A DNA stretch of 45,278 nt, the filler included, from Jimgerdemannia flammicorona (Eukaryota), in assembly GCA_003990765.1 (NCBI GenBank). It is 2 parts of 2 records of this genome, joined end to end, with 100 filler letters (N's around TTAATTAATTAA, not from the genome) between each part and the next. Parts side by side here need not be neighbours in the genome. Positions count along the whole stretch, not along the records: positions 22,697 to 45,278 come from RBNJ01001243.1; 1 more part is not named here. One strand, 5' to 3'. The stretch's first letter is position 1. Each line of letters opens with the position of its first letter. The notes beneath the pieces are model-generated. The model ran no database searches and was not told where the DNA came from. It saw only the letters and a program-made list of their open reading frames with translations. Positions 1 through 45,278 of this stretch are shown one piece after another. The position numbers and the translations under genes are program-made.

Positions 1-65
1 TTTATAGTCCCTTGGACTCCATCTTTATTACCAGTCTATGAATAAGTATACAATATCACCACCCA

Positions 66-3000: not shown

Positions 3001-3722
3001 TCACCACTTCTCCCAAAACACCCCTGTCCCAAGAGGCCCCAGTGATCTGACCATGGACACCATTCTATCTCTAGCACCTTCTAAACATTGTGGCCCCAAC
3101 AGTTGGCCATCAGAATCCAGTCAATCCTTGTCCCCAGACCTCCAGCCCAATGCGTATATACTCTCCTGTCCCCCCAGTACTCCCTACCAGCATCCACCAG
3201 TGCTCCTAGCCTTTCAACCTCCACCCACATCGCCAGCCCCCCACTCCTGCTCTCAGCACCCCATCCTCCATCAGTTCTATCCAGCCATACATCCCAAACC
3301 ATATTGAAATCTCCTCCAAGCATATCCAACCTAGCTTCAGCAAGGATCCCACTCTCCAGGAGCCCTTTTACCCAATCCACATGCTCCCCCCGTACAGCAG
3401 AGCAGTAACAGGAGCCAACTGTGACTGGCTCCCAATCTGCACGAATCCACTCACTCCAGACCAGTCTCTCCCCCCAGCTCCTCACATCCCTTATCTCCCC
3501 TCTGCCTTTCCGAACCAGAATCCCGACCTTACTGTTCCAAATCACCATGCTACCCCATTCCTTAGTCCATTTCATCCTATCAGAGTCATTCTTGCACCTG
3601 AAATCCTACAAGAGGAAGAGATCAGCCTCCAATCCCTTCAACCAAATAAAAATGTTCCTGCGTCTAACTGCACCCCTTAGCCCATTCACATTCAAAGAAA
3701 AAATGTTGGTTGTACTGTTCAT
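66..3722 (-). pseudogene. LINE1 ORF2 (APE endonuclease, reverse transcriptase, C-terminal CCHC), disrupted
   Basis: MNSTTNIFSLNVNGLRG start, LGGDFN and TRIDWI (APE); GVPQGDPLSP and AFADD (RT); RGGLGLVDF; CEEC-x12-H-x4 zinc motif; many premature stops. Confidence 0.93.
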
Positions 3723-3752
3723 AATGAAATATGGTTTGTTCTCAATCAATCC

Positions 3753-5783: not shown

Positions 5784-5866
5784 GATACTAGTAGCTTTTC
5801 TCCAGAAACTATGTTGAAAGTGTTGCCAAAAGATTGTGTAACCTGAATGTTACCAGAGAAAGGATG

Positions 5867-11521: not shown

Positions 11522-14500
11522 TTAATTACCAGCGTAGAGTCCTGTAATATCCATTCCTTGCATGCATAAGTCAAACTTTGCCTTTGGAAGGGCTTTAGTC
11601 AATGAATCTGCTGTCATATATTCTGTTGGGGTGTATTCAAGGTGTATAGTGCCGTTTTCCATGCATTCACATATGAAATGATGCTGTATTTCAATGTGTT
11701 TCGTTCTGGCGTGATGTATAGGGTTCTTCGCCAAAGCAATTGTTGATTGGTTATCTTGCTAGAGTAGTGTAGAGTGCCATTGCTTGTATTCCAGCTCCTT
11801 TAACAGTTCTCAAAGCCAGATAGCCTCCTTTGTTGTCATTGACAATACTTGATATTCCACTTGCATAGAGGATATTACCACTAAAGATTGCTTATACGTT
11901 TGCCATGAAATGGCTCCATTGTTTACTTTAAAGATGTATCCAGTTGTAGACCTTCTGTCATCTAAGTCGCCAGCCCAATTGGCATCACAAGAACTGAGTA
12001 GGCATATAGTACTCCCGCTTTGCCCATTATTACTGCCCAAACTGAGCATATAGTCTGCGGTTCCTTTGATGTACCTGAAAATTCGCTTGATTGCTATCCA
12101 ATGGCTATTATCATAGCATGAAGAATACTGCATCGCTTTGTTTACTGCAAAAGAGATATCAGGTCTCATCCCTTACATAAGATATATAAGGGATCCCACA
12201 GCTTGTTGATAGGGAATATTGTTTCCCTCAGGCATAGTGTCAGACTTCTTTAGTTTCATGAATGTTTCCATAGGTGTCCCGACTGGTTTGCATTCACTCA
12301 TCCTGAATCGCTCAAGAATATTTCGAATATATGTGGCTTGCATTAGGTGTATAGTACGCTTGCGCCTGTTATGTGTAATCGATATTCCAAGGAGATAGGA
12401 CACTTCACCTAAGTCCATCATTTTGAATTCCTGGCATAGTGTAGCCTTTAAGTCATTGATTTCACTTGCTGTTCTGACTAAAATAATATTGTCAACCCAA
12501 ATTCCCAGGTATATCATTCCTGAGGATGTATGTCGGGTGTATATACATGGATCAGCTTCACAACGCTTGAATCTGTTGTCTAGAAGATATCCATCAATCT
12601 TTTGATTCCACAACCTTGCTGCTTGCTTGATTCTGTAGAGCCCTTTGTGTAATTTACATATGAGCTCATTTCCATCATTGTCATATAGTTCATATCCTTG
12701 TGGTTGAAGAACATATAGTTCGGTATCCACATCTCCATTTAGGAAGGCTATCTTAATGTCCATTTGATGTATCTCATAGTCATACTTGGCTCCAATTGTA
12801 AGAAGTATTCTAAGTGAAGTAAGCTTAAATACCGGGGAAAATGTTTCATTGTAGTTGACTCCAAAGTCTTGTGAATACCCCTTTACCATGAATCAGGCCT
12901 TGTATCATTCTATGCTGCTGTTGCTATCGTGTTTAATTTTATACACTCATCGAGATCCTATGGCTTGTCAATTTGCCGGAAGAGAGACCAAGTCCCACAT
13001 GTTATTCTCGATGAGTGAGTTATACTCCTCGTCTATAGCCTTTTTCCACTTCTTTTTATCGTTCAAATGAATGACTTCGTCATAGTGTGCTGGCTCACTG
13101 GTCATTGCTATGTAAGCACATTCGCAGGTGTAGTTCACGTGATATTGTTTGTGATGAGATGACTTGGGTAGGTTCCAGTAATTTCCCAGATCTGCTTGGA
13201 CTTCATTATCCATCCCAGATTTGCACTTCTTCTTACCCTTCGGAAAGGTATCCTCTTCATCATCCTCATCCATAATTTCTGTTATCCTTAGTTCTTGCAA
13301 CTTCATTTCCATTTGAATGGGTTGTGTTTTCGCTGGCATAGGTCCCAAGGATGTCTTTGGCATAGTCTTCAGTATTGTTCCGGGTGTAGATGTTGTTCCA
13401 CTAGCCTTTACAGTTGGCGTAGATGTTGCTGGCTGTACTGTCGAATTCACCATCAGATTTGAGATAGGAATTTCCATGTAAATTTCCTGCTTAGTCTCTT
13501 TGAACTATACGTCGCGTGAAATGATCATACATCATTTCTGCGGGTTTCAAAGTCTGTATTCCGCTCCATCGTATCCAAGGAATATATGCTTATCTGCCTT
13601 AGGTTCAAACTTGCCTCGGTTGCCACCTTTGTCCAGAATGTATGCCTTGCTTCCGAATATGCGTAAGTGTGAAATGTCAGGCTTGGATCCATTCCATAAT
13701 TCCTCAGGGGTAAGATTGCTGTCATTCCTGGATTGCTTGCCAGGATCCTTGCTTAGAGCTCAAGAGAAACAACGATTTCGAATATATGCTACCATATTCA
13801 CCACTTCCGCCCAAAAGGACTTCGGTAAGCCAGCTGTATTCATCATCATTCTAGCCATTTCCACTACCATTCGATTGAATTGTTCCGCCACACCATTTTT
13901 CTGAGGTGTATAAGGGGCTGTCATAGAGTGCTGTATACCATTCTTCTTCAAGAAGTGTCTGAAACCTTTGTTGACGTATTCTTTGCTATTATCTGAGCAT
14001 AGGGTTCATATTCTACATCCCGTCTCATTCTCTATGGCTGCCTTGAATTCCCGGAATTTGTCGAATGCCTCGTTTTTCTCCGCAATGAAATATATGTGGA
14101 CTTTGCATGTATAATCATCAATGAATGTAATAAAATACTTCTTCCCGGAGTGTGATGTCATTCACATAGGGCCACAAATATCCGTATGAATCAAATCGAG
14201 AATGCCAGCCACTTGCTTCGTTCATTCCTGAAAAGGTTGCTGGGAAGCCTTGTTTGCCATATATCTATCGCAAAAGAAATCCAGTGACATATAGTCCAGT
14301 AAACCATACACGGACTTGCTCCTTATCATCCATTCCAGGCTCATTTTACCAATATGTCCTAAGTGTTCATGCATTATATGCCAGAAATCCTCTCTTGTCG
14401 TAGTTGCAGAATATGCGGATGTAGCACCACTCAGCGTGCCGTTGATTGCATATAGATTCCCCTTTTTTGATGTATACATTAACTCCTTATTGTTCTTCAG

Positions 14501-17140: not shown

Positions 17141-19173
17141 ATGTCGACCAGCAAGTAAGCCGACATGCGTACTAGATCAGGTGGACCTGGGGCCTTCAAC
17201 TGGCAGCATGTTGGGAGAGGGTATGGACTGGGAATGGGGTCTTTCGATGGCTCAGGTGGGCAGGACAGCTTGGGGAGTGGAAGTGGCACTGGTGGGAGGG
17301 CTGGAGGGCAGCAGGGAAGGAGCTTTGTGGACATGCTGAGGACTGGGGGTTGGCCAACGGGATCCCGTGGTGGTCAGGCAGGAGGGAAGGGAAAGCAGAA
17401 GGACAGGGCTGCTATGGGAGCTGGGCCTTCACCAGGGGGAGGTGGTGGAAGTGGAGCAGCTGCTGGGGGTAGTGGCAGGACTGCTGATGGGGGCATGATG
17501 ATGAATCAGGAAAAAAAAAGAGATGTGATGGCTGATGGCCAGGGGGGGCAGGGGTTCCTGATGCAGAAGGGGGACCTGGTGGATGGTGTAATGGGGTTGG
17601 CAGTGGCCCCATTGCTCAAGAAGTTGATTTCGGAGTTCGCAGTCACCTTGTGCTTCTGGGGCTTGGCAGTGATGGCGAGGATGGTTCTGGGGCTGATTTC
17701 GAAGCAGGTGGTGGGGGCAGCCTCAGTGAAGTTCTTGAAGGGCTTGGAGGGGGTTGAGGTGGGTTTTGAGGAAGTGGGCCCACTGGATGAGGCCCTGAAG
17801 ACTGGAGTCATGATTGGAGAGGTGGTGGTACCTATGGTGCAGTGCTTGAGGTGGGACCCCAGAGTGGTGCAGCTTCTGGTGAGAGGGGTGCCACAGTGAC
17901 TAAGGAGGAGACTAGGAAGAGGGTGGAGGAGGTGATGATAGAGTATGGTGATGTGGTGGACATAGGCTTTCAGGTGTAGGAGGGGACTACAATCAGGACA
18001 GGTGATGTCGATGTCAGGATTCAGCTGGCAGACAAGGAGGCCACAGGGAAAACGAGTGACTGGCCTTCGGTGCTGATGTGGGGGGCTGTCATCTGCAAGA
18101 TGTCGAGGGTGAAAGGGAGTGAAGAGGAGGAGGAGGACTTGTTGGAGGCACTGAAGGAATTGGGTGGTACTGTGGAGAGGAGGGCGAAGGTCTGGAAACT
18201 GTATGAGGAGTCGATGCATCTGGAGGTTGTGGGTGGTAAGCATATCTGTATGGACAAGAAGCAGTGGGAGCAGGCCCAGGGATGCATGAGGCAGAGGGAG
18301 CTGTTGGCCAGTATGACAGGAGGGGTGGAGAAGAAATCAGTTGGAACTGGAGAGTCTGGAGGCGTTAAGGCCAGTGTCTGGGCTGGTAAAGGAGGAGAGG
18401 AGGTGGAGGCGAAGGAGGCAGAGGCAGGGAAGATACTGGACAAGAATACATTTGCAAACGGTACCTTCGAAGTGTGGGAGCCGGAGTTGGATGCCACCCC
18501 CCCCCCACTTATCAGGAGGGGCCTGGTTGGGAAGAGAGGGATGATGGAGGATACACAGATGCAGGGGGCCCAGCAGGTGCACTTTGGGGTCCCTGATGTA
18601 GCGCAAGGGGGTCAGGTGGTGGCGGTTGGCAAGGAGGAGCTGGTGGATGTCCCTGAGGAGAAGTGGGATGAGGCTGCCAGTGTAGGAGCAGATACCATAA
18701 TGTTGAATGCAGGGTGGCCAGGGACTCCAGGAGGGAAGGAGGTGGGGAACTTGTTGTGAATATGCAAGGTGATGGATAATCTTGCAGCAGAGGCGTTGGG
18801 GGAAGTGAACCTGCAGGCGATGCCTGAGGAGCATTGGGCACAGATTCTGCATAGTGATGGAATGGTGGAGGCACTGAAGGTGGAGATTCTGGCTATTTTC
18901 CTAGAGGAGGAGGGATATGAGATTGATGAGGTGAGGAAGGCAGATTTGGGGGTGGTTACTGGTGAGCGGGTGACATACTGTTGGGTGGAGCATCATGGTC
19001 TGAGGCTCTGGCAGGAGGCCTGTCTAGAGTATCAGGAGGACTTTGAGGAGCATGAAGATGGGGTGATGGTAGAACTTCTAGGGGTGTTGGCAGTGCGGGA
19101 AGCTGGGGAGAGGGAACTAGCTGCTGAACGTGACTTGGACTTGGTGCAGGAGGAGCAGAATGCAGACTTGTAG
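17141..19173 (+). pseudogene. LINE4 ORF1, stops and a frameshift
   Basis: Fragments 17165-17899, 18070-18759 and 18769-19173 align to copy 1 ORF1. Confidence 0.88.
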
Positions 19174-22596: not shown

Positions 22597-22696
22597 NNNN
22601 NNNNNNNNNNNNNNNNNNNNNNNNNNNNNNNNNNNNNNNNTTAATTAATTAANNNNNNNNNNNNNNNNNNNNNNNNNNNNNNNNNNNNNNNNNNNN
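22597..22696. other. Synthetic assembly gap/linker (44 N + TTAATTAATTAA + 44 N)
   Basis: Exactly 100 bp and symmetric; the palindromic 12-mer gives stops in all six frames. Confidence 0.97.
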
Positions 22697-22707
22697 AAAA
22701 AAAAAAA

Positions 22708-23173: not shown

Positions 23174-25098
23174 ATGGATGGCAATGATCGAACTGGTGAG
23201 TATGCTGACCAGGGGAGCAGTGGTGCCTTTGGCTGGCAGTAGGTGGAGATAGTTTGGGGATGCCAGGGGCCTCAATGGCTGGCTGAGGCTCTGGAGGTAG
23301 TGGGAGGGGCAGCTTGAGGCAGCAAGGAGGGGAGAGGTTGACCTTTGCTGATAAGGTCAAGTTGGGGAAGATGGCCTCAGGTCTGGATGGTTGGCTGGGT
23401 CTGTGGAAGGCATTGATGGCTGATGCTGGGAGTCAGGGAGGAGTGCCCAGGGGAGTGTCTGGTGATAGAGGAGGGGGGGGAGTAGGGGCTGGTGATATGA
23501 CTGCTGATGGGGCTGTGATGGGGGTTCTGGAAAAAAATCCAGATGTGACAGTGGTTGATGGATCAGGACAGAGAGTAGGTACGAGGCCTGGGGACCTGGC
23601 AGATGGGGTGATGGGTATGGTGTCAGCAACATTACTCAAGAAATCAAGGTTGGAATACATCATCACAATGTGCTTCAGGGGCTTGGCAGTGACTACAAGG
23701 ATGATCTTGGGGCTGGTGGTACAGGAGGCAAAGGGGGCAGCATCAGTGAAGTTTTTGAAGGGGAAAGAAGGGGTTGAGGTGGGGTTTGAGGAAGAGGAAG
23801 CTCTGTTGGCCACTATGGAGAAGGGGGTGATAGTGGGTAGAGTTGTGGTCCTTATGGCCAGGTGCATGCACTGGGACCCCTGAGTGGTGCAGTTGACAGT
23901 GTTGGATCTCCCTACAGTGTCGAGGGAGAGGGCCAGGGAGTTGATCATGGGGGCAGTCAAGGAGTATGGGAAGATTATAGACATTGGGTTCAAGGTCTGG
24001 GAAGGAATGGAGCTCAGGACTGGTGATTGGATATCCAGGTGAGGCTGGCCAGAAAGGAGAATATGGGAAAGATGAGGGATTGGCCAGCGACTCTGAGGTG
24101 GGGACCAATCAAGTGCAAGGTCACATGAGTGAAGGGGACTCTGGAAGAGGAGGAGGACTTGCTTGAAGTGCTCGAGGACCTGGAGGGGGCTGTTGAGAGG
24201 AGGAGATTGGCTTGGCAGGAGTATGAAGCGAGGACAGTAGTAGAAATCACCAAGGGAAAGAAGACCAGGGTAGATAAGGTGACCTGGGAGAAGATGCAAG
24301 GGAGGTGAATCCAGAAGAAGCTGCTGGCGACATTGGGTGGAGGTGGGGATGGCAGGAGCACAGAGGATGGGATAGCAGGATTGCAGGTGAGTAACTGGGC
24401 AGGGGGAAATGGGATGGCCCAAGGTGGGGCACAGGTTGGACCAAGGGAGGAGACACAGGGCAGTTTGGAGGTGGATGTAGAGATTAGCAAAGGAGCCCAT
24501 CCTCGGTATAGTTTCCTATCCTCGGTATAGTTTCCCAGGGGGGGCAGAGGGTGAGGAGGAGTTGCTAGATGTCCCTGATGAGGAGTGGGATGAGTTAGTA
24601 AGGAAGAGCACTTTGGTGGACCCAGGGGTGGGAGATGGTCAGGTTGCCCAGGATATGGCAGAGGCAGTGGATGAGGAGAAGTGGCTGTAGAAGACTTTGG
24701 AAGGAGTGGCAGCAGAGGAGCTAGGGGGAGAGGACTTCTGGGTTTTGGAAGAAAGGCATTGGGAGGAAATCCTTAGAGGAGAGGAGGTGCTGAGGAAGAT
24801 TAGGAATGAGATCCTGGTAGTTCTATTGGAATCGATTGAATATCAGGTCAATGATCAGAGAAAGGAGGAACTCTGGAGGATTGCAAGTGACAGGGCAGCT
24901 TACTTGTGGAGATCAAGGAAGAGATTGGAGAAGTGGAGAGTAGTCTGTGCAGACTATCGGGCAGAGATGGAAGTGGTGGATGGGGTGGAATATCAGGAAA
25001 TCTTAGAGGCATTGGATGCTCAGGCTGTAGCAGAGGAGGATATGGAAGCAGAGTGGTGTTTGGATCTGGCTGGGGATGAGATGAGTATGGAATACTAG
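23174..25098 (+). pseudogene. LINE5 ORF1, disrupted
   Basis: MDGNDRTGE start; fragments 23314-23883 and 24697-25098. Confidence 0.85.
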
Positions 25099-30260: not shown

Positions 30261-30329
<69 letters not shown>

Positions 30330-30388
30330 GTTACTTGGACTCTGCCTTTATTATCAGTCTATGAATAATTATACAACATTCCAACCCA

Positions 30389-33300
30389 CTATCCAATCCC
30401 CACCAGGGGGCCCCTCCCTGCTTCCTCACGAATGAAAATCACCCTTTCACCAATGACCCCCACTCTCCCCCCACTCTGCCTACAGATTTTCTCCACCAAG
30501 CAGCGCCTCCAACCACCCTGCATCCCCCAACCCAGCCACCAGCCAGTTAAGATGTCTTCCATAAGCCTATGCCATCACAGCAGCCAGTCCCCCAAGCTCT
30601 GCCTCCTCCCATCCTCAAAGACAAATAGCCAATGACTGGTCAACTCCACCCAAATAGCCAAAGCCCAACCTAACATGAGCCACTCCTTCCCTATCCCCCC
30701 TACCAATCTAACCCTCAGGTCCTCCCATCGCCCCTGTACTCCATCACTCCTACCCTGTACCCCTAAGCGATCCCCAATTGTCTGCCAAAAATTCCCCAAC
30801 ACCTCACACTCTCCTAGCCAATGTTCTGGCATCTGTACATAGCCCCCCTCCTGCCCTACATTATGGCACTCCTCACAGTCGAAGCAACCCCCTACAACCA
30901 GGTACCCTGAGTGAAAATTGAGCATAACATTCCTCCGCAGCATGCACCACCAGACCACCCAGTACTTTGGAGGCAGCCATGCTCTCACCACAGCACTCCA
31001 GGTCCAAACACTATGCCAGTTCCACTCTTCGCCAATTCCAACTCCTTGCCAACCGCTAGGCCACAGATCCTGGCCTGGTCCCCTTTGGCATTCTATTCCA
31101 TCACCAATGTCAAACTCAGCTAAAGGAGCACCACCCAGTAGTAAACAGTCCCATCTCCACATCACCGGGTCCCAATCCTCCTCACCTTCATTCCCTTGCC
31201 AATGAATACCAATACGGTGCACTCCTTCTACAATTCCCCACCAGAATTCTTTATATCATAGTTGGGCAGTGTTCTGAAGCCCAACCAAGGAGAGGAGATC
31301 ACCGGTTGAGCCCCTTGGCGACGTCCACCTCTCCCAGATCTTTTGTAACAGAGGAACCCATCCACCTCCTCTCAACTCCACCGCCCTCTTCAGCCACCAT
31401 ACTCTCAAGCAGTGTAACCGTTTCGGGAAGTCAACCAGCCCAAGACCACCTCTCGCCACTGGCAGGGACAAGGTTTCCCAACTGATCTGACTCCACCTAC
31501 CAGCCCAAATCCATCCTTTTGCTGCCCTCATCAATCTCTTCACTACCCAGGCTGAGAAGTCCAGATGATACACCAAATACCACAACTTTGGCAGCCAGTA
31601 GACATTCAAAACCGAGACCCTCCCTGCTAGAGAAAAATGTCTACCCCCCCAACTCCGCAGAGCCTCCTCCCAGATTCCAATCCTCTGCTCCCACCAAAGC
31701 TCGGGCAGAACTGACCCATAGACTGACAAGTAGATACCTAAGTACCACACTGCTTCACCAGTGGGGACAATTGTTCCTATGACCTCCCCTCCCACCAGGC
31801 CATTCCCAAGCACCATTGTCTCACACTTATACCAATTCAGCTTAGCTCCAGAATGCTCCTCATACCACTCCACAGTCCTCTTGAGCTCCTCAACATCAGC
31901 AATTGAACCCAGGCCCACCACCATGTCGTCAGCAAAGGCCCCAACCTTCCATCCTATTCTAAAGATAGAGAGCCCCACTATCCTCTGCCTAATCTGGTCC
32001 ATAAGTGGTTCCAGGGAAAGAGCATACAAAATGGGGGACAGTGGGTCCCCCTGGGGCACGCCCCTTCCCAAGGGGAATGCTACCCCTCTATATCCATTGC
32101 ACATGAGTGCAGCCCTACTCCCTTCCAGTAGGCTGACCATTGTTGACTGGAATTGGTGGTACCCCCATTCTATCCAGAACTTTCTCCAGCCAGGCTCTCC
32201 GCACCTGGTCGTAAGCCTTCTCCTGGTCCAAGAAAACTAGATGCCCATCTAGCCCACATGCTCTCGCCCCTTCGATGATGCCATGCACTCAGGCAGTGCC
32301 ATCCCTGATGAGCCGACCACCCACAAATCCCCTCTGCTCCATGCCAATGACTTGCTGGGCCACCTTCTGTAGTCTCGCCACCACCACCTTGGTTACCAAC
32401 TTTCTGTCCATATCTAGCAGCATTATCGGCTGCCAGTTCTTCCAATCCTCCTCCCCTCCTTTGTTTTTGTAGAGCAGCATCACCAGCCCAAGGTCCTGCT
32501 CTCCCACCCATCTACCTGTCTGTAGAATAAGGTCGCATAATGCTGTCATCTCTCCCATCACTCTTGGGACCTCAACCATTCATTTCCAAAAGTCCCAGAG
32601 CAGCCCATCCTCCCCAGGTGCCATACCGGACATTGTCACAGCAAGAACCTAGTGGATCTCACCCTCCTGTACAGACATCACCAGGTCCCCTAGCCCTTCA
32701 ACTTGTGGTGGGTACCAATCCTCCAATGTACGTTCAATTGCAGCAGCATCCGCCCCACCTTCCTCCTCACTCCACAATCCACTCCATCTCTCCTTCAGCG
32801 ATCCAAGAATGTCCTGAACACCATGCACTAGTACACCATCAGAGTCCAAGACCCCTTCCCACTGTTGCTGGACCTGCCTCACCCTAAGGGCTCTTGAAAG
32901 AAGCTTGGAAGGCCTCTCTCCTTCCTCCAGATCCTGCCAATAAAGCCGTGCTGCCAAGCTTTGTATCCTTGCCTCTTCTTCCTCCTGCAGCACCTGTTGA
33001 AGTTCCCCAACCTCCATTTTCGCCCTCAGTAATCTCCAATCTTCTTCTCCCTCCAACATCATCAGCCGTGCCCACTCCTCCAGGAGCCTCGTCAATTGAG
33101 CAGAGGCCCAGCACACCTTTTGTTTTCACTGCTTCCCTGCCTCCTTGCCAGCCTCCTTCCAGTAAATCCTGGCCATTTCCATCATCCTCATCCACCGAGT
33201 CCCAACTGCAACCCCTTCCTGCCTCCAGGTCTCCACCCTCAGCTGAATGTCTCTAGCCCACTCATCCCACCGGGTCTTGTCATCTAACAAAGAGGAATTG

Positions 33301-34044
33301 AGGCACCAATGTCCAGGCCCATCCCCACTTCCCCCAAAGCACCTCTGTCCCAAGAGCCCCCCAGTGATCCAACCATGGACACCATTCCACCTCTAATGAT
33401 TTCCAAACATCTAGGCCCCAGCAGCAAGCCATCAAAATCCAATTGATCCTAGTCCCCAGACCCCCTGCCCAATGTGTATAGACCCTCCTGCTCCCCCAGC
33501 ACTCCCTTCCAGCATCCAATAGCGCACTCAGCCTCTCGACTTCCTCCCATACCACCAGCCCTCCACTCCTGCCCTCAGCACCTCGTTCTCCATCTGATCT
33601 ATCCATCTGAATATCTCTAACCATATTGAAATCTCCCCCTAGCACATCCACCCCGGCCTCTGCAAATAATCCACTCTCCTGTAGTCCCTTCACCCAATCG
33701 ACCCTCTCACCCCATACCACAGGGCAGTAGCAAGAACCAACCGTAACTGGTTCCCAGCCTACCTGAATTCACTCTCCCCAGATCATTCTCTCCCCCCAGC
33801 ACTGCACATTCTGAATCTCCCCTCTGCCTCTCCTAACCAAGATCCCAACCTTGCTCCTCCAAATCACTGCACCTCCCCACTCCTTCGTCCATTCTAACCT
33901 ATCAGAGTCATCTTCGCACCGAACATCCTGCAAGAGGAAGAGATTGGCCTCCAATCCCTTCATCCAAGTAAAAATGTTCCTACATCGAGAAGCACCCCAT
34001 AACCCATTCACATTCAAAGAGAAAATGTTTGTTATACTATTCAT
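30389..34044 (-). pseudogene. LINE6 ORF2 (APE-RT-CCHC), disrupted
   Basis: MNSITNIFSLNVNGL, LGGDFN, GVPQGDPLSP, AFADD, CEEC...EHWLGEC. Confidence 0.93.
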
Positions 34045-34077
34045 ATTGATGATATATATGATGTCATCGAACTGCCT

Positions 34078-36103
34078 CTACTGCTCCATGCTCATCTCCT
34101 CCTGTGCCCTGTCCAAATTATGTTCTGCAGCCACCTCCTCCTCTTCAGCCCTCTGAGCCTCCAATCCAGCCAGTAGTTCATTCATCTCACCATCGGCCTT
34201 CTCCTCAAACTCCTCTCAGTATTCGATGCAGGCTTCCTGCCAGAGCTGTAGTCCATGTCGCTTGTTCCAGCAGTATTCAGCCCTTTCTCCAGCAACAACT
34301 GCCAACTCCTCCTCTCTCCCCTTATCCACCTCATATCCTTCCTCCTCCAGGTACACTGCAAGAAATTCTGCCTTCAATGCCTTTACCACGCCATCCCCCT
34401 GCAGTATTCCTGCCCAGTGCTCATCACTCATCACTTGCAAGTCCACTTCCCCCAACTCTTCCGCCGCCAGGTTATTCATCATTCGGCACGTCCAAAGCAG
34501 GTTCCCCACCTCTTTCCCCCCCAGAGTCGCCAACCTCCCTCCATCCAACATTGTGGTGTTAGCTCCAGCACTTGCAGACTCATCCCACACTTCCGGGACA
34601 TCCACCAGTTCCTCCTTGCCATCTGCCTCCACCTGTCCCCCATACGCTACCTCTGGAACTCCGAATTGCACCTGCTGGGCCCCTCGCATAGGCACATCTT
34701 CCACCACCTTATTCTGGGAAGCCGGGCCATGCCTGATGAGAGGGGTAGGGGTAGGGGAATCCACCCAGTCCTCCTCCCACACCTCCAGTGTACCATCCGC
34801 ATATAGGTTCCTCCCTGCCTTCTTCATATCCTCCCCCGCCTCCTTCTTGTCCTTCCCCTCCCCCTCGCTGGCCCAGACACTCGCTCCAGCTCTCCCTGTG
34901 CCCATCATCTTGCTTGCCTCTCCCAGTGGTCTGCTATCCAGCTTGGCCAACAACTCCTTCTGCCTCTTGCGCCTCTGAGCCCTTTCCCACTGCTCCTTGG
35001 TCACTCGAATCCACTTTCCATCCACCACCTCCAAGTGTGTCGCCTCTTCAAAAGCCTCCCAAGCCTTCGCTCACCTCTCCACAGCCCCCCCAAGCTCTTC
35101 GAGTGCTTCCAGTAAATCCTCCTCCTCTTCCTCACTCCCCTTCACCCTTGTCACCTTACACAGGATTGCTCCCCAGACCATCGCTGAAGGCCAATCCCTT
35201 GCCTTCCCCATGGCTTCCTTCCCAGCTAGCTGAATCCTCACATCCATGTCACCAGTCCTGAGCAAGGTCCCCTCCCAGACCCAGAACCCGATATCGACCA
35301 CCTCATCGTATTCTGCCATGAAATCCTCAACCCTCTTCCTTGTCTCCATCGCTGTCACCGTCGGCACTCCCTTCACCAGCAGTTGGACCACCCTGGGGTC
35401 CCACTTTAAGCACCGTACCATAGGAACACATACCTCCCCAACCACCAATCCAACCTTCAGTGTCTCCTCCAGTAGTGCTGCCTCCTCAAAACCCACCTCC
35501 ACTCCTTCCAGTCCCTTCAAAAACTTCACAGATGCTGCACCTGCCACCTGCTTAGCGATGAGCCCTAGCACCATTTTTGCCATCACCACCAGGCCCTGGA
35601 AGCATAGTGTGACCCCGAATGCCGAAATTGATTTCTTGAGTAATGGAGCCACTGCCAGACCCATTACACCATCCGCCAAGTCCCCTTGCTTTCTAAGCCT
35701 CAGCTGCTCAGCCTCGCCATCAGCCATCACATCTGGATTTTTTTCCAGATCGACAGTCCCAATACCATTAGCAGTCACACCCCCCCCCAGCCACTACTCC
35801 TGCAGCTCCACTGCCCCCCCTTCCAAGGGCTGCACCCCCCGGCACCATCTTCTCCTCGGTCCCCTTGCCCTTCTTCAGCCAGCCCTCCAGCCCCGACGCC
35901 TGCTGCCTCCCCTTCACCATCTCCATGAAGCTTGCCCTCCCAGATCCTGATCCTCCACCACCTCCTCCACCCCTTCCATGTCCACCCGCCAGCAGGCCCC
36001 TCATACTGCCCCCCAGGCCTGGCCCCCTCCCCACCTGTTGCCAGTCGAAAGTGCTAGGGCCGCCCTGCCTAGTATGCACCTCAGGTTGTCTGTCAGTTGC
36101 CAT
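34078..36103 (-). pseudogene. LINE6 ORF1, disrupted
   Basis: Fragments 35768-36103, 35071-35778 and 34216-35034 align to copy 1 ORF1. Confidence 0.88.
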
Positions 36104-36464
36104 ATTGTTAGTCTCTTTTTGCTGAAAATGTTGTCGAAAGTGCCTTCCAAAGGTTGTGTAACCTGAATGGTACTGGAAAGAGATATGATTATATATAATC
36201 TATATGCAGCAGTAGTGTTTTTCTGGATTAGGCCAGTGGAGTTCCTAATGTAGGTTAGGTCTGGGGCTAGAAGGTTCTGCAACTGCTCTCTAATTGCATA
36301 GTAGACCTGTAGCTAGTGGACTAGCAGTAGACATTTGGGCAAGGTGAGGTTCTCCTAATGCATCTGGATTTATTGGAGGGAGTTTTCATTGGCTTGGTGA
36401 AATTGTGGTAGGGGAACTAGAAGTGATTAGAATGAACTCAGGATAAGGGTCTGGAGACACTGGT

Positions 36465-37480
36465 CAATTGTCTGGTTTATAGTATAGAGAGAGGTATATC
36501 TTGAGGTGGTTGATATATACTAGTGTTCTCAGAGTTTGCTCATCCATACTTCTTAAATAGATGCTAGTTTCTCTGATATTGTATACAAGATAAGGTCCTT
36601 TCTATTAAGCTCTAGTTTTGTAGCAAAGTTTATTTTAATCATACTTCTCTAAACTGTACTTGATCTTTAATCTTGATCTTCTGATCCTTCTGCTTCTGAT
36701 CATAATACTTCTTTTGTCTTTCTTAGACCTTAATAACCTAGACTTGTACTTGATTATATAACTGTTCTGCTTTCTTAAAGAGGTCTCTGAGGTTCTTATG
36801 GTCAGCAGTTCTTGTTTTCTTAACAAACATCATCTCAAATAATTTTTGTTTGGTAGAGACAATAGGAGTGTTCTGAATTTCCATAGGATTTCAGATAAGC
36901 AGAGGTCCCAGTTGGTAGGATTGACTTGGACAAGTCCTTTCTTAATGGTCTAGTTGATTTATTCTATCATACCATGGTCTGAGGGTGGTATGATGTGGTC
37001 TGTTTAAGATGGATCTAATTGTATTATTGATGAATTCTGTGCCTCAGTCAGAGATGAGTCCTGGAGGTCTATATCTGAGTGTGAGTCCATAGAGAAGACC
37101 TACAATGGTCAAGGTATCTGCAATTTCTATTGGAAAAGCTTCAGGCCACTTGGTCAGATATTCTACAAATACTATGATGTACTTGTTTCTTCTTGGTATA
37201 TGTAACTGGTAGAGGTCTAATTACATCTACTCTCCATCTCTAAAAGATGTTGTCTGGTAGTACAATTGGTTGTAGTAGTGCTTGATAGTTCTTCCTTTCT
37301 TGATACTTCTAGCAGATGTTATATTTCTTGAGTATATCCCAGACTTGTGTTCTGAGATTGGGCCAATATTGGTATATTATTCATAGCTTTTCTTCTATAT
37401 TCACCTGTTCTTGGTAGGCTTTCTGGTGCTCTTTTCAGATGAGATCTTCTTGTACTTTGACAGTCTGAGGGGCTTCTTTT
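36465..37480 (-). pseudogene. Gypsy B integrase, decayed
   Basis: KYIIVFVEYLTKWPEAFP; TTSYHPQT; QKKYYDQK; KGPYLV (GPY/F); INHLKIY. Confidence 0.85.
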
Positions 37481-37559
37481 AGGGTGTAGTTCCTTGTTAT
37501 ATCCTTCTTCTGGTTCATTGGAGTTGGTGAGAAAGTATATCAACATTATTGTGAGCTTT

Positions 37560-38891
37560 CCCTGCTTTGTAGATAATGGTGATTTTGCAATCCTGAAGAA
37601 TAAGACTCTAGTGGGCTAGGATTCCAGTGAGTTCCTTATAGTTGAATTGCTATTTCAGGGCTATATAGTCAGTTACCAGAGTGAACCTTTTTCTAATGAG
37701 ATAATGCTTGAACAGAGTGACCACCCATATGACTGTAAGGCATTCTAGTTTGGTGCTACCATAATTGGTTTGCTGCTGATTAATTGCTTGGCTTGCATAA
37801 GCTATTACATAGTACTGTTGGTCATATCCTTCTTGGGCTAGAACTGCTCCAAGACTATCTTTGGAGGCATCTGTGTACAAGATGAATGGCTTCTGTAGAT
37901 TGGAGAATACAAGGATTAGTGCTGTAGTTATGCAGTGCTTGAGTTCCTTGAAGGCTAGTTCTGTGATTCTGTCCATTTGTAAGATACTTCTTTCTTGAGA
38001 AGGATTCAGATTGGGGTGGTAATTTGGGCAAAGTCCTTGATAAATCTTCTATAGTAAGATACTAGTATCAGAAATAATAGTGTTTTCTTTGGGGTCTTGA
38101 GTATTGGCCAATTGTGGATCTTCTCAGTTTTCTTTAGATCTTTATGAGTTCCTTTTTTCAAAACTATAAATCCAAGGAACTTAAGTTTCTGTTTTCCAAA
38201 GTAGTATTTCTTAGCATTGAGTCTCAGGTGATTTTTATGGGTGAGCTCAAAGAATTCTTCTAGGTAGTACAGGTGTTCCTTGAAATTTGCTGAATATATG
38301 TTAGAATTATCTATATATGTATATAATCAGGCAGTGGTGAATCAATAGACCATAGACTGAGTTCATCATTCTCTGAAAGGTGGGAAAGTCCAAAGGATAT
38401 TCAGAGATATTCAAACAGTTTTCCTAGAGCAAGAAAGATTGTTTTCTAAATGTTTTTGGAATCTATGGGGATCTCATGAAATCCTGTGAAAAGATCTATA
38501 CTACTGAAGTATCTGGCATCTTGTAACTGCCTAAGAGATCATTGGTTCTAGACAAAGGATAGGTATTCTTTTTGGTGACTGAATTGAGTTTCCTGTAGTC
38601 TATACAGAGTCTCCATTCTTCTTTCTTTGGTATAATAAATATAGGGCTGGCCCAGAGGCTAATAGAAGGTTGGATAACTCTATTGTCTATGAGTTCTTGA
38701 ATGTGTTCCTTTTCAAATATCTTTAGGTAATGGGGTATTCTGTAGAGTTTCTGCCAGATGGGTGTTGTATTTCCTATATTTATACTGTGGTAGTATGATA
38801 GATTATATGGCAGGTTGCCATAATCAGTGATGAAGATATCTTGATATTTGTTGAGGGGTTCTACTAGTTGTTGCTGTTGCTGGGGTATCAA
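37560..38891 (-). pseudogene. Gypsy B reverse transcriptase and RNase H, decayed
   Basis: WASPIFIIPKKEEWRLCIDYRKLNSVTKKNTYPL; YIDN (from YIDD); FILYTDASKDSLGAVLAQ; YGSTKLECL; LVTDYIALK. Confidence 0.93.
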
Positions 38892-39326
38892 TTCATCTCC
38901 AATATTGATAGAAGGCTTTACTGTCTCCTGGATTACACAGGGGCCTTTCCTTTCTTCTGAGATCTTTTGCCATTTTCTGATAAGTTTAGTTCATAAACTT
39001 CTCTGTAAGTTCAGTTGAGGAAGAGCACTAAATGTCCTATAATGGTTTCTTTTGGTAAGATAATGCTTTCCTGGCTCTTATTAGTTGCTCAGAGTATACT
39101 GGATTCATCTTGTCAGGGAATATATGTCCTTTAATGTCCAGATTCAGGATATCTTCATTGGGTTTGAAGAAGAGATTCCTGGGGTCTGTGGTGCAAAGAT
39201 TTCGAAGGTGATTTGCTTGCCAGGCTACAGGATGAGATTCTTGTACAATTTGACTGGTTGATGATATACTTGCTGAGGGGCATTCTTCTTGAGATAGTTG
39301 ACTTGAAGGAGATATACTTTCTTCAT

Positions 39327-39740
39327 ATCTGAGCTTCAAAATCCTTCAGCTTGCCTTATTTCTTTAGTTAGTTTAGAGACTTCTTATAATTGGGGGGTCT
39401 TGACTTTCATGAAGACTGCTTGAGCAATCTTCTGTCTTCTAATAATTTAGTACTATTCAGTATATTACTATTATGCAGGATGATCTTGATTTCACCTATA
39501 TATTCTGGGTCAATGGTTCCTCCTTTCACAGTTATTCTTTATCTGGCAAGTCAAGACCTTGAGGTCAGTTGGCTATAAGTTCCTTAAGGTGGCTGTATGA
39601 CTAGTCTAGTTCTGAATATCAGTGTTCTTCCAGGCTTGATGAGTTTATCCTCCAGACTGTAGAGATTATACCCTACATCTTCTTGGTGATCTTTGGTTGG
39701 GAGTTTGGCCTTGTGGTGTAGCAGAACATACTGGACAATA
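39327..39740 (-). pseudogene. dUTPase domain of gypsy B (between PR and RT)
   Basis: KAKLPTKDHQEDVGYNLYS (motif 1), SRS*LA (2), GGTIDPEYIGEIKIILHN (3), QKIAQAVF (4, after a frameshift), RQAEGF*SSD (5). Confidence 0.9.
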
Positions 39741-41029
39741 TCCTTGCTGAGTTCAGGCTATCCTTGGGCTGAAGCTTTACTGGCAGGAAGTCTCCATGCT
39801 CTGAGGTTGAGGAGTAGCTATCTGGCTCCAGTAGAGAGATCTTAGAGATAGTTGATTGCTCTTTTTCCTATAGAGTCTGGGCTTCCATGAAGTTGGTGGC
39901 ATCTTCTACCCATTCTCAGTGAGTTGTATGTCTGATGAGAGCTAGAATATCTTCTCTCAAATCATAGATCTTGAAAATCCTTCTTTCTGGTTTCTTAGTC
40001 TGGCTTTTTCAGATCTGAGTTCTGTTGTCTCCTCTCTTTAGAGTATAAACTACAACATTCTGACTGAGGTGAATCTTCTGGTATCTGCAGTCTCAGCAGT
40101 CTGGGTGTCTTCTATGGTTGCAATATTCCATTACTCAAAAATGCTGTTCCTGGTTATTGATCTCCTATTGTCTTGGGAATAGGGATCCATCTTAGTCATA
40201 GATTGAGAGAAGAGTGGCCAAGAGATATACTTCTGTTTGGGTAAAGAGACCTTGTCCTCTAAGTCAACTTTGTAATCTTGTGGTGACTACTTGGAAGGTA
40301 GTTGACTATACAACAGTAGTTGGAAGTTCTAATCTTTGGGGTCTCTATCTTTCTTGTTGATCCAGTAGATGGCACTGATAGCAGTAGTCTCAGAGAGAAT
40401 GGAAGATCATTTGATGTAGACATCTTCCTAGCCAAAAGGCTCTTTATTAGTATGTTTCTTACTTTGGAATAATAGAGATAGTGCTGGGTCCTTCTTCCAT
40501 ATTCCAGGAGTCATTATCTTTAGGTGGTATCTAGTGAGAATCATCCCAGGAAATGAGTTCAGGGATCTCTTTATCTTTCAATACTTCTTGTTCAGGAATC
40601 TCCTATTAAGGGGTTTCTTCTTCCTCAGATAATACTTGACCCCAGATTGCTTGTACTTCTGCAGCTTTGGCTGCAGGTGTCTCTGAAATATATCTGCATT
40701 TCTTCTTCCTTCTTCTGTACTCAGGGCAGGCTGTATCAGGTGAATTCCTTGTCCCAATGATCTTAGAGGAGTGCTTGGGGTATATGTGTCTCTTGAGACA
40801 GGTGGGGCATCCTTTGATCTGTCCTACAATAACTCTGATTGTGATAGGAATGGTGTTCCTGGCTTACATATTGTCTTCTGGACTGTTATCTACTAGGTTG
40901 ATTCAGGGATTAAGTCAGGGATCATTTTCAAGTTCAGATTCTTCTTCCTCTTCTGTAGTAGACTCTGTACTGCTGGCAGATTCTTCCTGAATGGTAACCT
41001 TCTTCTTCTTCTTCAATTACTCATAGCTG

Positions 41030-41232
41030 GTCATCTTAACTCTATACTTCTTGTCTCAGTAGTCAAACTTCAGTACTTGTTGACTAATATCAACAACTGT
41101 ATTCATTTCCTTCATCCAGTTGGTTCCAGAGGTTATATCATAGGTGACAGCTTTGATGATAACAGCTTTTGAGATAGAGAACTGAATGTGTCTAAGAGAG
41201 ATAGTATAAGAGGGTTTACTTTTTAGGGTAAC
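41030..41232 (-). pseudogene. C-terminal half of gypsy B aspartic protease
   Basis: YDITSGTNWMKEMNTVVDISQQVLKFDY (ILGxDW-type motif); the catalytic half is displaced by the insertion at 41233. Confidence 0.7.
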
Positions 41233-42695
41233 TGTTACACGGTTTTCTGGAAGTTCTGGATATTCTGGAAGACCGTTTTCTTAAGGTCAAGATCAATTTC
41301 ATATGGAGTATATCCTATATACTTATTGATTTCAAGATCAGGTTGACATCTCAACCAAGTCCTTTTTCGGACTAGTTCTGGATGTTCAGGATTTTCTGTA
41401 TTTCAGGAAGTTCAAGAAACTAAGGCCAGCTTAGTTGAATTGGCATATTGCTGCAGACAATACCCAATTAGGAAATTTCATGACAGGGTTAGGAGTGGGA
41501 TCTAATGGGGAGTGGATTTACTTAAGAATGGTTTGTGGGTTATTAAATAGGTTTATTCACTATTCATGATATTGCTATACTAGGAGTAGTTGTGTGAAGG
41601 AATATTGTGGGGAAGTGCTCAGGAGTTGTGTTTGGATTGTTCAAGTCTTCAAGTCTGAGATTCTGAGGTCTAGGGGAGGGTGTATTTATACTAGTAAGGG
41701 GCTATCTGGACTATACTAGATATGGATATAGTACTTAGTGCCTTGCTGAGTCAGAATGCAGTCACATAGTACAAATGTGATCTGATATATCAAGAGATTA
41801 TCTGACTGCTGAGTCAGTTCACAGTCACATTGTACAAGGCTAATCTAACTATACTATGACTGCTAAGCTATTTATAGATTGAGATACTATCTGGTTAGTC
41901 TTTGATGATATCACTATTGATGACATCATTGCTGGCAAAGTCTGAGCAGTTTTCTGACTTCTGACATCATCAGTTTCAAAGGTATCATCACTTCTATCTC
42001 TTATAAGATTAAGGCTGTCCTTGGTAGCAGTGGTTGTATAAGGATAACAGGTCTCGGTTCTCTTTTTTTTTGGTCTGCTGGTACATTTGCAAGGACTGGC
42101 CATCCTTGTCTAGGGCGAGGGCTCCCAATGTCATGGCTGGGGGTTCGAACCTCTTGGAAATGATATTTTCTATAATCCGAGGCAATTTCTAGTAGTAATA
42201 TCTGTCATGTGGATGGCTTGAGATTGGTTTCAATGATGTTGGCTTTCTTGAGTTCAGATGAAGCATCTGTCACTCTCCAATGGAGGTGACACAGATAGAG
42301 CGAACAGAGTTGTTCAAATGTATTTTACTTCTGCTAAGTAATGAGGTCTTGTATAGTCACAGTATATCTTGATCTTGAGTTGATAAGTGTAGTTCATGAA
42401 CCTTTTGATGGATAAGATAGGGTTCTTCTTGTCTTGGTTTGGTCTTGGTACTTTCGGTTCCCTTTTGTAATAGTACAGTATACTAAACTAGTTATAGAGA
42501 TTCAGAGTTGATCTTATGGTTATAGTACTTCTTCTGGTATTCTTGTATCTTGGCAGTGGGTTCTTATGCTTGCTGGCATATTTTGTGTAACCAGATGATC
42601 TCTTCAGTAACTTGTTTTGTAGTCTTGCATGTAGTTTCCAAATTAGTTCTGAGGATGACATGCGATTTTGGTGGCTTGGAGGTTGTGCACTTATA
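41233..42695 (-). repeat. Putative 3' LTR region of gypsy C (alternative boundary 41233-42049)
   Basis: PPT AAGAAGGGGAGAG then T(A<G)TAAG at 42695; ends GTGTAACA at 41233; TATAAATA at 41683-41690; a second TGTTA...TAACA pair bounds 41233-42049. Confidence 0.6.
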
Positions 42696-42779
42696 ACTCT
42701 CCCCTTCTTAGCTTTTGACATCCTCATTGGGATCTTCTAATTTGTTCTAGTGTTGTTGTACCATTTGGATGGTTCTTGT

Positions 42780-42860
42780 GGCCACATTTGTTGAGGATTT
42801 GTTCAACTTTGTATTCTTCTTGGTCATTAATAATGACAGATGCAGGTGGTTCTGTGGTTT
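42780..42860 (-). pseudogene. N-terminal part of a chromodomain
   Basis: PPASVIINDQEEYKVEQILNK matches the chromovirus PPPVII..EEYEVE.IL.K pattern. Confidence 0.75.
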
Positions 42861-43079
42861 GGTTCCGAAATATGTCTTAGACTTTCTGGAGCAGAGGTTT
42901 AACACAGCTATCAACTTTGGAAAAGTCTTCTTCAGAGTTCTTGGGTTCTCCTTTGGATGGGCAGATGGAAATGGCAAAGAGAGGGTATTTCTTGGCCAAT
43001 TTCTTGAGCTGTAGCTTATTGATGTGGGTGATCTTTGGTCCAGGGTTGCTAGAGCTGAGTGGGTCCTTTTCACCTTGCA

Positions 43080-43430
43080 GTTTGAAGTTATAGTGTCCTT
43101 TCTTGATGGTCAGAGAATGGTTTACCCAATCAATCATGAGGTTTTCTTGTTTTAACCATGGGGTTCCAAGGATGATTTCATTATCAGAAAGTGGTACAAT
43201 CTGAAGGGTAACATATACTCAGTAGTTACCAATTCAGAAGAGTAGATTACAGACTTCCTTGCTAATGACATGGGAGGTTCCATCAGCTGTGGCAACTGCT
43301 TGAGTTTGTTGTACTGGAGAGGTGAAGACCTTGAGTCTGTTGGCTGTTTCTTCATTGATAAAGTTGCCTGAGGCACCACTGTCTATCATAATTTTAACAG
43401 ATGCTCAGTTGACAAAAGCTTGAAGTGTAA
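43080..43430 (-). pseudogene. Gypsy C aspartic protease
   Basis: IMIDSGASGNFINEE...VATADG...IILGTPWLKQENLMIDW. Confidence 0.92.
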
Positions 43431-43650
43431 GTAGTTTGTCTGATCTAATGGTGGTAATTTTGGTTATAGGAGCTTTTCTTCTGTTGGTTCTTCTTTGAGC
43501 CAGTTCATTGATACAAGAGAAGCAATCATCGATTATTCAAGAAGAGTACATTCCAATACTGTGAGGGCATTGGCCACTTGGTATATATCTGTCTTCGATT
43601 TTCTTATAGAATTGTTCTTCTTTGCTCATGGTGGGTTGGGCTGGGGCCTT

Positions 43651-44064
43651 ATTTGATGAGCCAAATCCTTTGGATCCTCGGATAGTAGGTAGTAGTTCAG
43701 GGACTTCCTTGACTATCAGGGTTGACTCAATTTTTTTGAATAGGATCTGGGCAATGCAGAAACCAATGGAGATCTTGAAGGGTATCTAACTATGGTTTCA
43801 GATGAGGACAATAATTTCGCCTATATAATCTTCATCAATGACTCCTCCTTCTACTGAGAGTCCTTTCAATGCTAGACTGCTGCGACAGCATATTCTTCCA
43901 ACATGTCCTTCAGTGATTTGGATGCTAATTTCTGTGTAGACTTGCTTAACTTCTCAGTTGGAGACTGTAGCTTCTTTGGCTGCATACAGGTCATATTCAG
44001 CTGCCTTTTGACTTCCTTTGGTTGGGGCTTTAGCAGTTTGTCTTAACTTGACAAAGTCCAGTGT
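43651..44064 (-). pseudogene. dUTPase domain of gypsy C (between Gag knuckle and PR)
   Basis: AKAPTKGSQKAAEYDLYA, RSSLA, GGVIDEDYIGEI, IAQILF, RGSKGFGSS: all five motifs in one frame. Confidence 0.95.
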
Positions 44065-44129
44065 TCTGGTAGTCAGATTATTGAGGTGGTGCAGAGTAGT
44101 AACAGTTGCTCATGTTGCTGTTCAGGGTT

Positions 44130-45122
44130 TTTGGTTAGAGCAGGCACTGGCCATGTATCCTGTCTTTTGGCAATAGAAGTATACTCTGCTTCTTCGAAGT
44201 TCATTCCTTTCTCCTTCGGTGAGTTTCTTGAAAGTACTTGGTTGGGTGGGTTCATGATTTCTGGGTGTCTAAGAGGTGGATGTGGAGGGAGTTCAGCTTC
44301 ATGCTTGGGTTCCTCTTTCTTGGTCCAAGTCTTTTTCTTGTTGTTGAATTGTCTTTGGAGCAGAATTGGTCCAGCTGTTAGGATTCACTTGACCATAGTC
44401 TTGATTCTTACCAGGCACCATTGTTGATGGTCACAACCAACTGAGTGGCCTTGTTCTCAGATTTTTCTAGTAAGCTATTCAGGTAGTGCATCGAATAGAT
44501 GGTCTGCTCTTATACCATTTCGTGCTTTGTCATTGGCAATGTATCCTAGGGCAACAGTGTTCAGGAGTGACTCAAGTTTTGGACAGAAGGTTTCAAATTC
44601 TTCTTTGCCATATATATTGAATTTGAGGTTGCAGAGTTTGACTTGAGATTCAGCAATCATGGTTTTGCTGTAGTATTGAGCAATCATGAGTTGTTTCAGT
44701 CCAGGGGCTGCAGGATGGGCTCTATATCCTGGGGTATTGTTTGCTGCATTTTGAGTAACTACTGCAGGTCAGGTGTCCCATGTGAGGGGTTTCTCAGAAA
44801 GGGTTTGCCACCATTCTTCGGTGGATTCTTGGAAGAATGTAACAACTCAGTAGACATAGGCTATAGTAGTAGCAAAGAGTTGTTCCAGAGTGTGGTCTTG
44901 ATTATTTGTCAGAAGGCAGTCAGCAACTTACTCATTGGTCCATTGATTGGCTTCAAAGTTGTTGTCAACTATACTAATGAAGCTTTGGACTTCTTGTATA
45001 GTACCATTGAAGGTAGGTAGGCTCAGATTTTTGGTAGGTCAGGTCTGTTCAGCTAAGGTAGTAATGGTTGTTGTCATTATGGCTACTTGGGCTGTGAGGT
45101 CTAGAATCTGTTGGTTTGCCAT
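44130..45122 (-). pseudogene. Gypsy C Gag with terminal CCHC knuckle, decayed
   Basis: LPTFNGT..EVQSF; EEWWQTL; KLTEGERNELRR.RV(C>Y)FYCQKTG(H>Y)MASAC. Confidence 0.8.
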
Positions 45123-45278
45123 TGTTACTAGAGGTGGTTAGACTGCTGGTAGTAGTATTACTGGTACTACTTGAGGTACTGGTGCAGAGTGTGAGGGTGT
45201 TCTTTGGGTCTGTGTAAGTTGCTGGAGTAATAGTTGTGGGTCTGGAGTGAGGGCTCAATAGATAGCTGTTTTTTTTTT

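Follow-up and report, generated by a model that had tools for sequence, protein, structure and literature searches.

A decayed dUTPase-bearing chromodomain Ty3/gypsy copy in Jimgerdemannia flammicorona and the probable single deletion of its reverse transcriptase-to-integrase block

The stretch of DNA considered here (hereafter the window) comprises 45,278 nucleotides from the fungus Jimgerdemannia flammicorona (assembly GCA_003990765.1), its positions 22,697 to 45,278 coming from the record RBNJ01001243.1. The segment 42697-45122 of the minus strand is very probably a dead copy of a dUTPase-bearing, chromodomain-type Ty3/gypsy long terminal repeat (LTR) retrotransposon that lost the block running from the reverse transcriptase (RT) to the integrase in one deletion. 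Read from 45122 to 42697, it displays Gag, a decayed CCHC zinc knuckle, a dUTPase, a protease and what is probably the start of a chromodomain in frame, followed by a tract of 13 purines. Intact members of the family carry, in this order, Gag, dUTPase, protease, RT, RNase H, integrase, and chromodomain. A preliminary description, made from the sequence of the window alone, had proposed a gypsy-type Gag-dUTPase-protease unit joined in frame to a chromodomain start and devoid of RT, RNase H, and integrase, and this view is borne out by Pfam and by the alignments with relatives. Both the set of domains and their order hold in Pfam when the block downstream of Gag is read through its stops.

In terms of classification, the copy is an ordinary internally deleted derivative of a known kind. 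Large retrotransposon derivatives (LARD) and terminal-repeat retrotransposons in miniature (TRIM) are characterized by an internal region without coding capacity, whereas Gag-dUTPase-protease coding sequence is present here. The retention of Gag, together with the protease, and the loss of RT, RNase H, and integrase correspond structurally to the elements designated as TR-GAG or GAG-PROT.

Organization of the element

The positions 41500-45278 were compared with four soil metagenome runs, designated X1, X2, X3, and X7, the best word share of any soil run with the stretch being 0.17. Contig details refer to 30 of the 3319 matching pieces and to 23 of the 161 rows of loose ends, and the depths given below are sums over contigs, not copy numbers. 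Proteins related to the element are designated by P followed by a number. The features of the element and its surroundings, from its 5' side onwards, are the following.

45268-45278, minus strand: run of 10 A at which sibling contigs diverge, marking an interruption or truncation of the 5' side of the element
45123-45267, minus strand: leader upstream of the gag ATG, common to sibling copies (record 22, an X3 contig, spans 44760-45267)
44385-45122, minus strand: Gag reading frame (246 codons, 7 stops among them), recognized by tblastn to P0001
44290-44300, minus strand: small deletion placing Gag and the downstream block out of frame; sibling contigs have T, GGAT or GGG inserted at 44294-44295
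44140-44181, minus strand: decayed CCHC zinc knuckle, reading YFYCQKTGYMASAC, from the alignment to P0001 residues 488-534
43654-44034, minus strand: dUTPase domain (PF00692, E 2.6e-31, profile positions 3-128 of 129)
43096-43467, minus strand: retropepsin-type protease with an intact IDSGAS (PF13975, E 1.1e-10; RVP_2, E 2e-10)
42868-43095, minus strand: protease-RT linker ending in ...LLQKV*DIF; the P0007 and P0015 alignments both end at 42868
42868-42869, minus strand: deletion junction, from the ends of the P0007 and P0015 alignments and the departure of an X7 contig
42710-42867, minus strand: pre-chromodomain spacer followed by the remains of a chromodomain, which bears small internal deletions and shifts frame near 42770, as judged from the P0006 match and sibling loose ends
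42697-42709, minus strand: 13 consecutive purines, AAGAAGGGGAGAG, which by their position are a candidate polypurine tract
41500-42696, minus strand: downstream repeated sequence covered by X1, X3, and X7 contigs, presumed to be the 3' LTR and/or a post-pol region

The Gag assignment arises from a tblastn match between P0001 residues 206-456 and positions 45125-44373 (33% identity over 251 residues, E 8e-36), the frame 44385-45122 giving no match in Pfam. Further along, P0001 carries the Pfam domain zf-CCHC at residues 505-521, and residues 39-86 of the downstream frame of the window align with that region; by reading of this alignment, two of the four ligands of the knuckle are mutated in the window. 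The dUTPase occupies residues 106-232 of the frame 42694-44349 on the minus strand, its coordinates being converted from these residue numbers, and is placed before the protease within the polyprotein. The three domains and their order thereby agree with those initially described, on the basis of Pfam for the dUTPase and the protease, and of the P0001 alignment for the knuckle.

These domains had also been said to run in a single frame. This holds for the knuckle, the dUTPase, the protease, the linker, and the chromodomain start, but Gag sits in another frame in this copy. As sibling contigs have one or four extra bases around 44295, the break between Gag and the downstream block is read as decay and not as a programmed frameshift. 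Upstream of Gag, no primer-binding site was recognized in the leader, and the latter shows no similarity to the region downstream of the element (best local alignment score of 33, versus 30.8 +/- 4.6 for shuffled sequences).

Loss of the RT-to-integrase block

The position of the deletion was established by comparison with relatives in which the RT is present. One of them, the intact sibling protein P0007 (537 residues, encoded by a contig of 3.6 kb), shares 88% identity with the window in an ungapped alignment of 334 residues, which ends exactly at ...LLQK(F/V)(R/*)DIF. Beyond DIF, P0007 continues as PKKLPKGLPPKRAVDH... (PKKLPKGLPP...) into the Pfam domain RVT_1 (E 5.2e-29), whereas the window reads RNQTTEPPASVIINDQEEYKVEQIL in an unchanged frame. 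Since the alignment ends at this point and P0007 runs on into RT, the junction can be fixed at 42869|42868. In the same line, the relative P0015 (about 70% protein identity) shows the same PKKLPKGLPP... continuation into RT, and its tblastn match also stops at 42868. Finally, one X7 contig departs from the window at 42869 and carries on for 165 letters that do not match it; PKKLLKGLPP, the RT form, is obtained by hand translation of the first 30. The junction, previously located at about 42868-42876, is thus sharpened to a single position by P0007, P0015, and the X7 contig.

As P0007 displays RVT_1 directly after the linker, the family possesses an RT, and it is this copy that has lost it. Nowhere in the window does an RT of this family occur: with the RT part of P0007 as query, only a neighbouring element matches, with 34% identity (38380-38855). 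The junction sequence occurs once in the window, and neither filler DNA nor a target duplication is visible at the junction.

Regarding the mechanism, a single deletion of about 2.7 kb would have taken out the RT, the RNase H, and the integrase. The first breakpoint would lie in the linker just ahead of the RT and the second one in the spacer between the integrase and the chromodomain, the reading frame being preserved by chance. The missing segment would accordingly extend from the start of the RT to the spacer following the SH3-like domain of the integrase, which corresponds to an estimated 890 residues or so. Such a deletion may have arisen from a template switch of the RT during a replication cycle, or from an illegitimate recombination event at the genomic level. 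Thereafter, the copy was inactivated by small indels and by extensive C>T/G>A decay, for the most part at CpG, and its 5' side is interrupted at the window edge. Since it keeps Gag, the protease, and the leader and purine tract, which are probably signals acting in cis, the shortened form might be copied in trans by the RT and the integrase of full-length relatives.

The chromodomain remnant

On the 3' side of the junction, the segment EYKVEQILN-KCGHKNH aligns in BLASTP with residues 1430-1446 of P0006, in which the Pfam domain Chromo spans residues 1431-1482. In addition, a likeness by eye to the proline-rich spacer of P0006 is seen in the 16 residues ahead of this match. Seven X1 contigs, with loose ends at 42770, and one X2 contig, with a loose end at 42772, track the window and then diverge; by hand translation, these loose ends read (H/Y)PEYL(V/I)KWKG, the canonical core of the chromodomain. 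The X2 contig differs from the window by one base out of 72 over 42772-42843. The chromodomain had been thought to lack its C-terminal half. This is contradicted by the sibling contigs: given that they read (H/Y)PEYL(V/I)KWKG and that the window retains ...KWY... in a shifted frame past 42770, the domain appears to have been damaged by small deletions with a frame shift rather than halved.

Directly following the remnant, positions 42314-42736 of the minus strand form a frame 140 codons long that is broken by only one stop. A comparison of 40800-42740 with the window by tblastx yielded nothing, and a post-pol or LTR-borne gene is unsupported by that comparison.

The ends of the element

The preliminary description had placed a polypurine tract and then an LTR after the chromodomain. 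The 13-purine tract is indeed present; the LTR is a presumed one, no second copy of it being found in the window. Between the 156-base leader region and the region downstream of the purine tract, no repeats were detected in the window.

On the 5' side, contigs from X3 and X7, with 125 and 26 loose letters, respectively, depart from the window at 45267-45269 and resemble each other beyond this point. Because these sibling contigs depart at the run of ten A, the copy is considered as interrupted or truncated on its 5' side at the window edge.

On the 3' side, the sequence 41500-42696 is covered by contigs from the same soil runs and is therefore repeated too. The summed depth of the X1 contigs reaches about 1900 over 41500-41877 versus about 500 in the rest of the stretch, that is, about four times more. 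The segment 41500-41877 may be the true LTR or else a portion that other families share, the step in depth around 41877 being unproven as the start of the LTR. The same segment contains two boxes resembling TATAAATA, as well as an imperfect internal direct repeat. Besides, loose ends at 41921-41929 in X2, X3, and X7 share one alternative sequence. These had been considered as a boundary of the element, a proposal that was dropped, as they fit by eye an indel of about 40 bases relative to the siblings: the window copy would hold some 40 extra bases at about 41930-41970, beside a short duplicated motif.

Several points weigh against the interpretation of the segment as one element shortened by one deletion. 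First, that both sides of the junction originate from a common element is something that we infer. Both the 3' breakpoint and the size of the deletion were derived from P0006, a distant relative, rather than from a full-length element of this family. The P0006 match to the chromodomain spans 17 residues only, with an E of 0.001 for a single comparison in BLASTP, and the Pfam domain Chromo gave no match in any of the three frames of 42697-42867. Finally, neither a second LTR copy nor a primer-binding site nor a target-site duplication is seen in the window, which can be ascribed to the fact that the window stops 156 bases upstream of gag.

Mutational decay of the copy

The 246 codons of Gag contain 7 stops and the 541 codons of the downstream block 13, giving 20 stops in 787 codons (15 TGA, 3 TAG, and 2 TAA). 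Among the seven stops that face P0007, five are a single C>T or G>A step away from the P0007 residue. More generally, one C>T or G>A change on the window side suffices to account for 34 of the 41 residue differences from P0007, 15 of these 34 lying in a CpG context; the remaining differences comprise 3 in the opposite direction and 4 other changes. The CpG observed/expected ratio is 0.11 in the element, 0.17 downstream of it, and 0.16 in the whole window. The early impression that the stops are mostly of the C>T/G>A decay type is consequently supported, both by the share of TGA and by the stops facing P0007. With 20 in-frame stops, this copy cannot make protein, and the idea that it builds its own dUTPase-loaded particles does not apply to it.

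As a general feature of the stretch, CpG is depleted across the whole window (observed/expected of 0.02-0.28), with TpG and CpA in excess, which fits a methylation-linked deamination of repeats.

Relatives of the element in soil metagenomes

The element family is highly repeated in soil metagenomes. The contigs found on the stretch amount to 3150 for X1, 136 for X3, 26 for X7, and 6 for X2; in X1, 357 of them are at least 99% alike, 927 are 95-99%, 1417 are 90-95%, and 449 are below 90%. RT-bearing siblings are represented by P0007, with 88% protein identity, P0015, with about 70%, and one X7 contig, and could be partners of the deleted form.

A sequence bridging the junction was sought in several ways. 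No such contig appears among the 30 pieces listed out of 3319. The 98 residues across the junction, compared with 1.84 billion protein representatives, gave two matches, neither of which crosses the junction, and a word-index search with residues 455-552 among short proteins gave none. With P0007 as query, one weak and irrelevant locus (L001) was obtained among metagenome contigs, and none among viral contigs. As for the form present at the junction, the RT form is shown by one of the 26 X7 contigs. In X1, contigs that continue for at least 20 letters with a sequence unlike the window make up a share given as 0, and the 23 rows listed out of 161 include no X1 loose end at 42869. At most, this weakly suggests that colinearity with the window extends across the junction in many X1 copies.

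Origin and possible spread of the deleted form

Whether the deleted form spread to further copies is a question on which the data are almost evenly poised, with a slight lean towards the negative. A first possibility, to which we give just under an even chance, is that of a spreading non-autonomous subfamily: the deletion would have occurred once in a transcribed master, whose short Gag-dUTPase-protease RNA would be packaged, with full-length relatives supplying the enzymes for its reverse transcription and integration. The junction would in that case recur at several loci, the window holding one old and decayed member. The two breakpoints in inter-domain linkers and the preserved frame are the layout expected of successful deletion forms. 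Moreover, the family is highly repeated, as illustrated by the number of X1 contigs on 41500-45278, and RT-bearing relatives exist. The zero printed for X1 contigs running on unlike the window and the lack of an X1 loose end at the junction among the rows listed constitute a weak hint in the same direction. Against such a spread, however, stands the failure of any listed contig to bridge the junction, as well as of any protein to cross it, be it among the 1.84 billion representatives or in the word index of short proteins.

Alternatively, the deletion could be private to this copy, a possibility that deserves serious consideration while staying below an even chance. A full-length insertion would later have lost its RT-integrase block by illegitimate or microhomology-mediated recombination and would never have moved in its shortened form, the in-frame result being a one-in-three accident. 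In support of this scenario, similar local damage is observed elsewhere in the copy, namely the deletions in the chromodomain and around 44295, the extra bases at about 41930-41970, and the interrupted 5' end. All close relatives that are readable at the junction (P0007, P0015, and the X7 contig) are of the RT form, and a clean-looking accident may be expected now and then among many decayed elements. Nevertheless, no conspicuous loose end of the RT form is seen at the junction in X1, despite its approximately 3150 contigs, an argument that is weak since it concerns the rows listed.

It is unlikely that two truncated elements simply abut at the junction, with a 3'-truncated Gag-protease copy on one side and a 5'-truncated chromodomain-LTR copy of the same or a related family on the other, joined through a nested insertion together with a deletion, or through unequal recombination of adjacent copies. 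Broken elements are piled up in this region, including a gypsy element at about 36200-39745, LINE-like repeats (LINE, long interspersed nuclear element), a copia element, and a further gypsy fragment, and no full-length reference ties the part after the junction to the family of the Gag-to-protease part. Yet, X1 contigs cover both sides of the junction, although this coverage speaks for presence only, because a summed contig depth is no copy number. The X2 contig with its single difference from the window over 42772-42843 also argues against abutting copies, as does a join that is in frame, lies within linkers, and shows neither filler nor duplication.

Lastly, an artefactual join made during the assembly of repeats is highly unlikely: the window is rich in repeats and holds a run of N at 22597-22696 (88 N in all), but a misjoin needs a sequence common to both sides, none being evident at the junction, and both flanks are continuous and decayed alike, with the CpG ratios reported above for the internal and downstream parts.

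Surrounding repeats

The Pfam scan of the neighbourhood covered 35500-42700 on the minus strand. A second and unrelated dUTPase-bearing gypsy element is located there, at about 36200-39745 on the minus strand, with a CpG observed/expected ratio of 0.02 and no DNA similarity to the 42697-45122 element. Its approximate domains, all on the minus strand and followed by an integrase-like translation further on, are the following.

39321-39745, minus strand: dUTPase
37985-38936, minus strand: RT
37524-37964, minus strand: RNase H

At about 36170, this neighbouring element adjoins a LINE-like repeat. A long repeat of extreme strand asymmetry is present in two copies (1-5853 and 30324-36173), about 70-82% alike, with a plus-strand GC skew of about -0.42 to -0.51; its G-rich minus strand resembles by eye a non-LTR reverse transcriptase, for which it is a candidate, and shorter pieces of it occur in the opposite orientation at 17505-17754 and 23479-23762. 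In addition, a copia-type pol remnant is found at 11594-14197 on the minus strand, with matches of 23-24% along about 540 residues to P0003 and P0005, both of which bear RVT_2. Finally, a gypsy fragment running from RNase H to integrase lies at 9074-10495 on the plus strand and is 29% identical to residues 809-1316 of P0006.

Comparison with known elements

As it stands, the copy carries little weight on its own: decayed, internally deleted LTR copies are common, and dUTPase-bearing gypsy elements of fungi have already been published (PMC2864245). According to that source, dUTPase-containing chromodomain Gypsy elements occur in Postia placenta (PosPlaTy3-3) as well as in Phanerochaete chrysosporium and Tuber melanosporum, and the dUTPase of PosPlaTy3-3 forms the amino-terminus of Pol, before the protease. 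By this description, to which the likeness is confined, the present element resembles PosPlaTy3-3 in its Ty3/gypsy type, in having a dUTPase ahead of the protease and, probably, in having a chromodomain at the C-terminus. Unlike PosPlaTy3-3 and the other fungal dUTPase Gypsy elements, which are full length, this copy has lost the RT, the RNase H, and the integrase and has been inactivated by mutation.

The second term of comparison is provided by plants. In PMC13570524, TR-GAG and GAG/PROT-only non-autonomous LTR retrotransposons are mentioned for Coffea, Arabidopsis, and the Triticeae, and 28 GAG/PROT-only families for sugar beet, such elements being regarded as semi-autonomous. Like these plant elements as they are presented there, the copy described here is a derivative of an LTR element that keeps Gag and the protease without the enzymes of replication. 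Those elements are shown to be multi-copy families with LTRs, whereas a single copy is seen here and no LTR pair in the window, and this copy also retains a dUTPase and a chromodomain stub. Among the listings returned by a literature search, no fungal deletion form keeping Gag and protease was found.

It can tentatively be proposed, with somewhat less than even confidence, that the deleted form represents a multi-copy, semi-autonomous lineage of this early-diverging soil fungus, providing its own Gag, dUTPase, protease, and chromodomain stub and borrowing the RT and the integrase. Should the junction turn out to be common to many loci, it would reveal a Gag-protease-dUTPase parasite of a full-length element in a fungus, and would offer a natural test of which retrotransposon proteins must come in cis. 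Such a semi-autonomous lineage, if real, would be to fungi what TR-GAG and GAG/PROT elements are to plants, and would be the first of its kind to keep an accessory enzyme.

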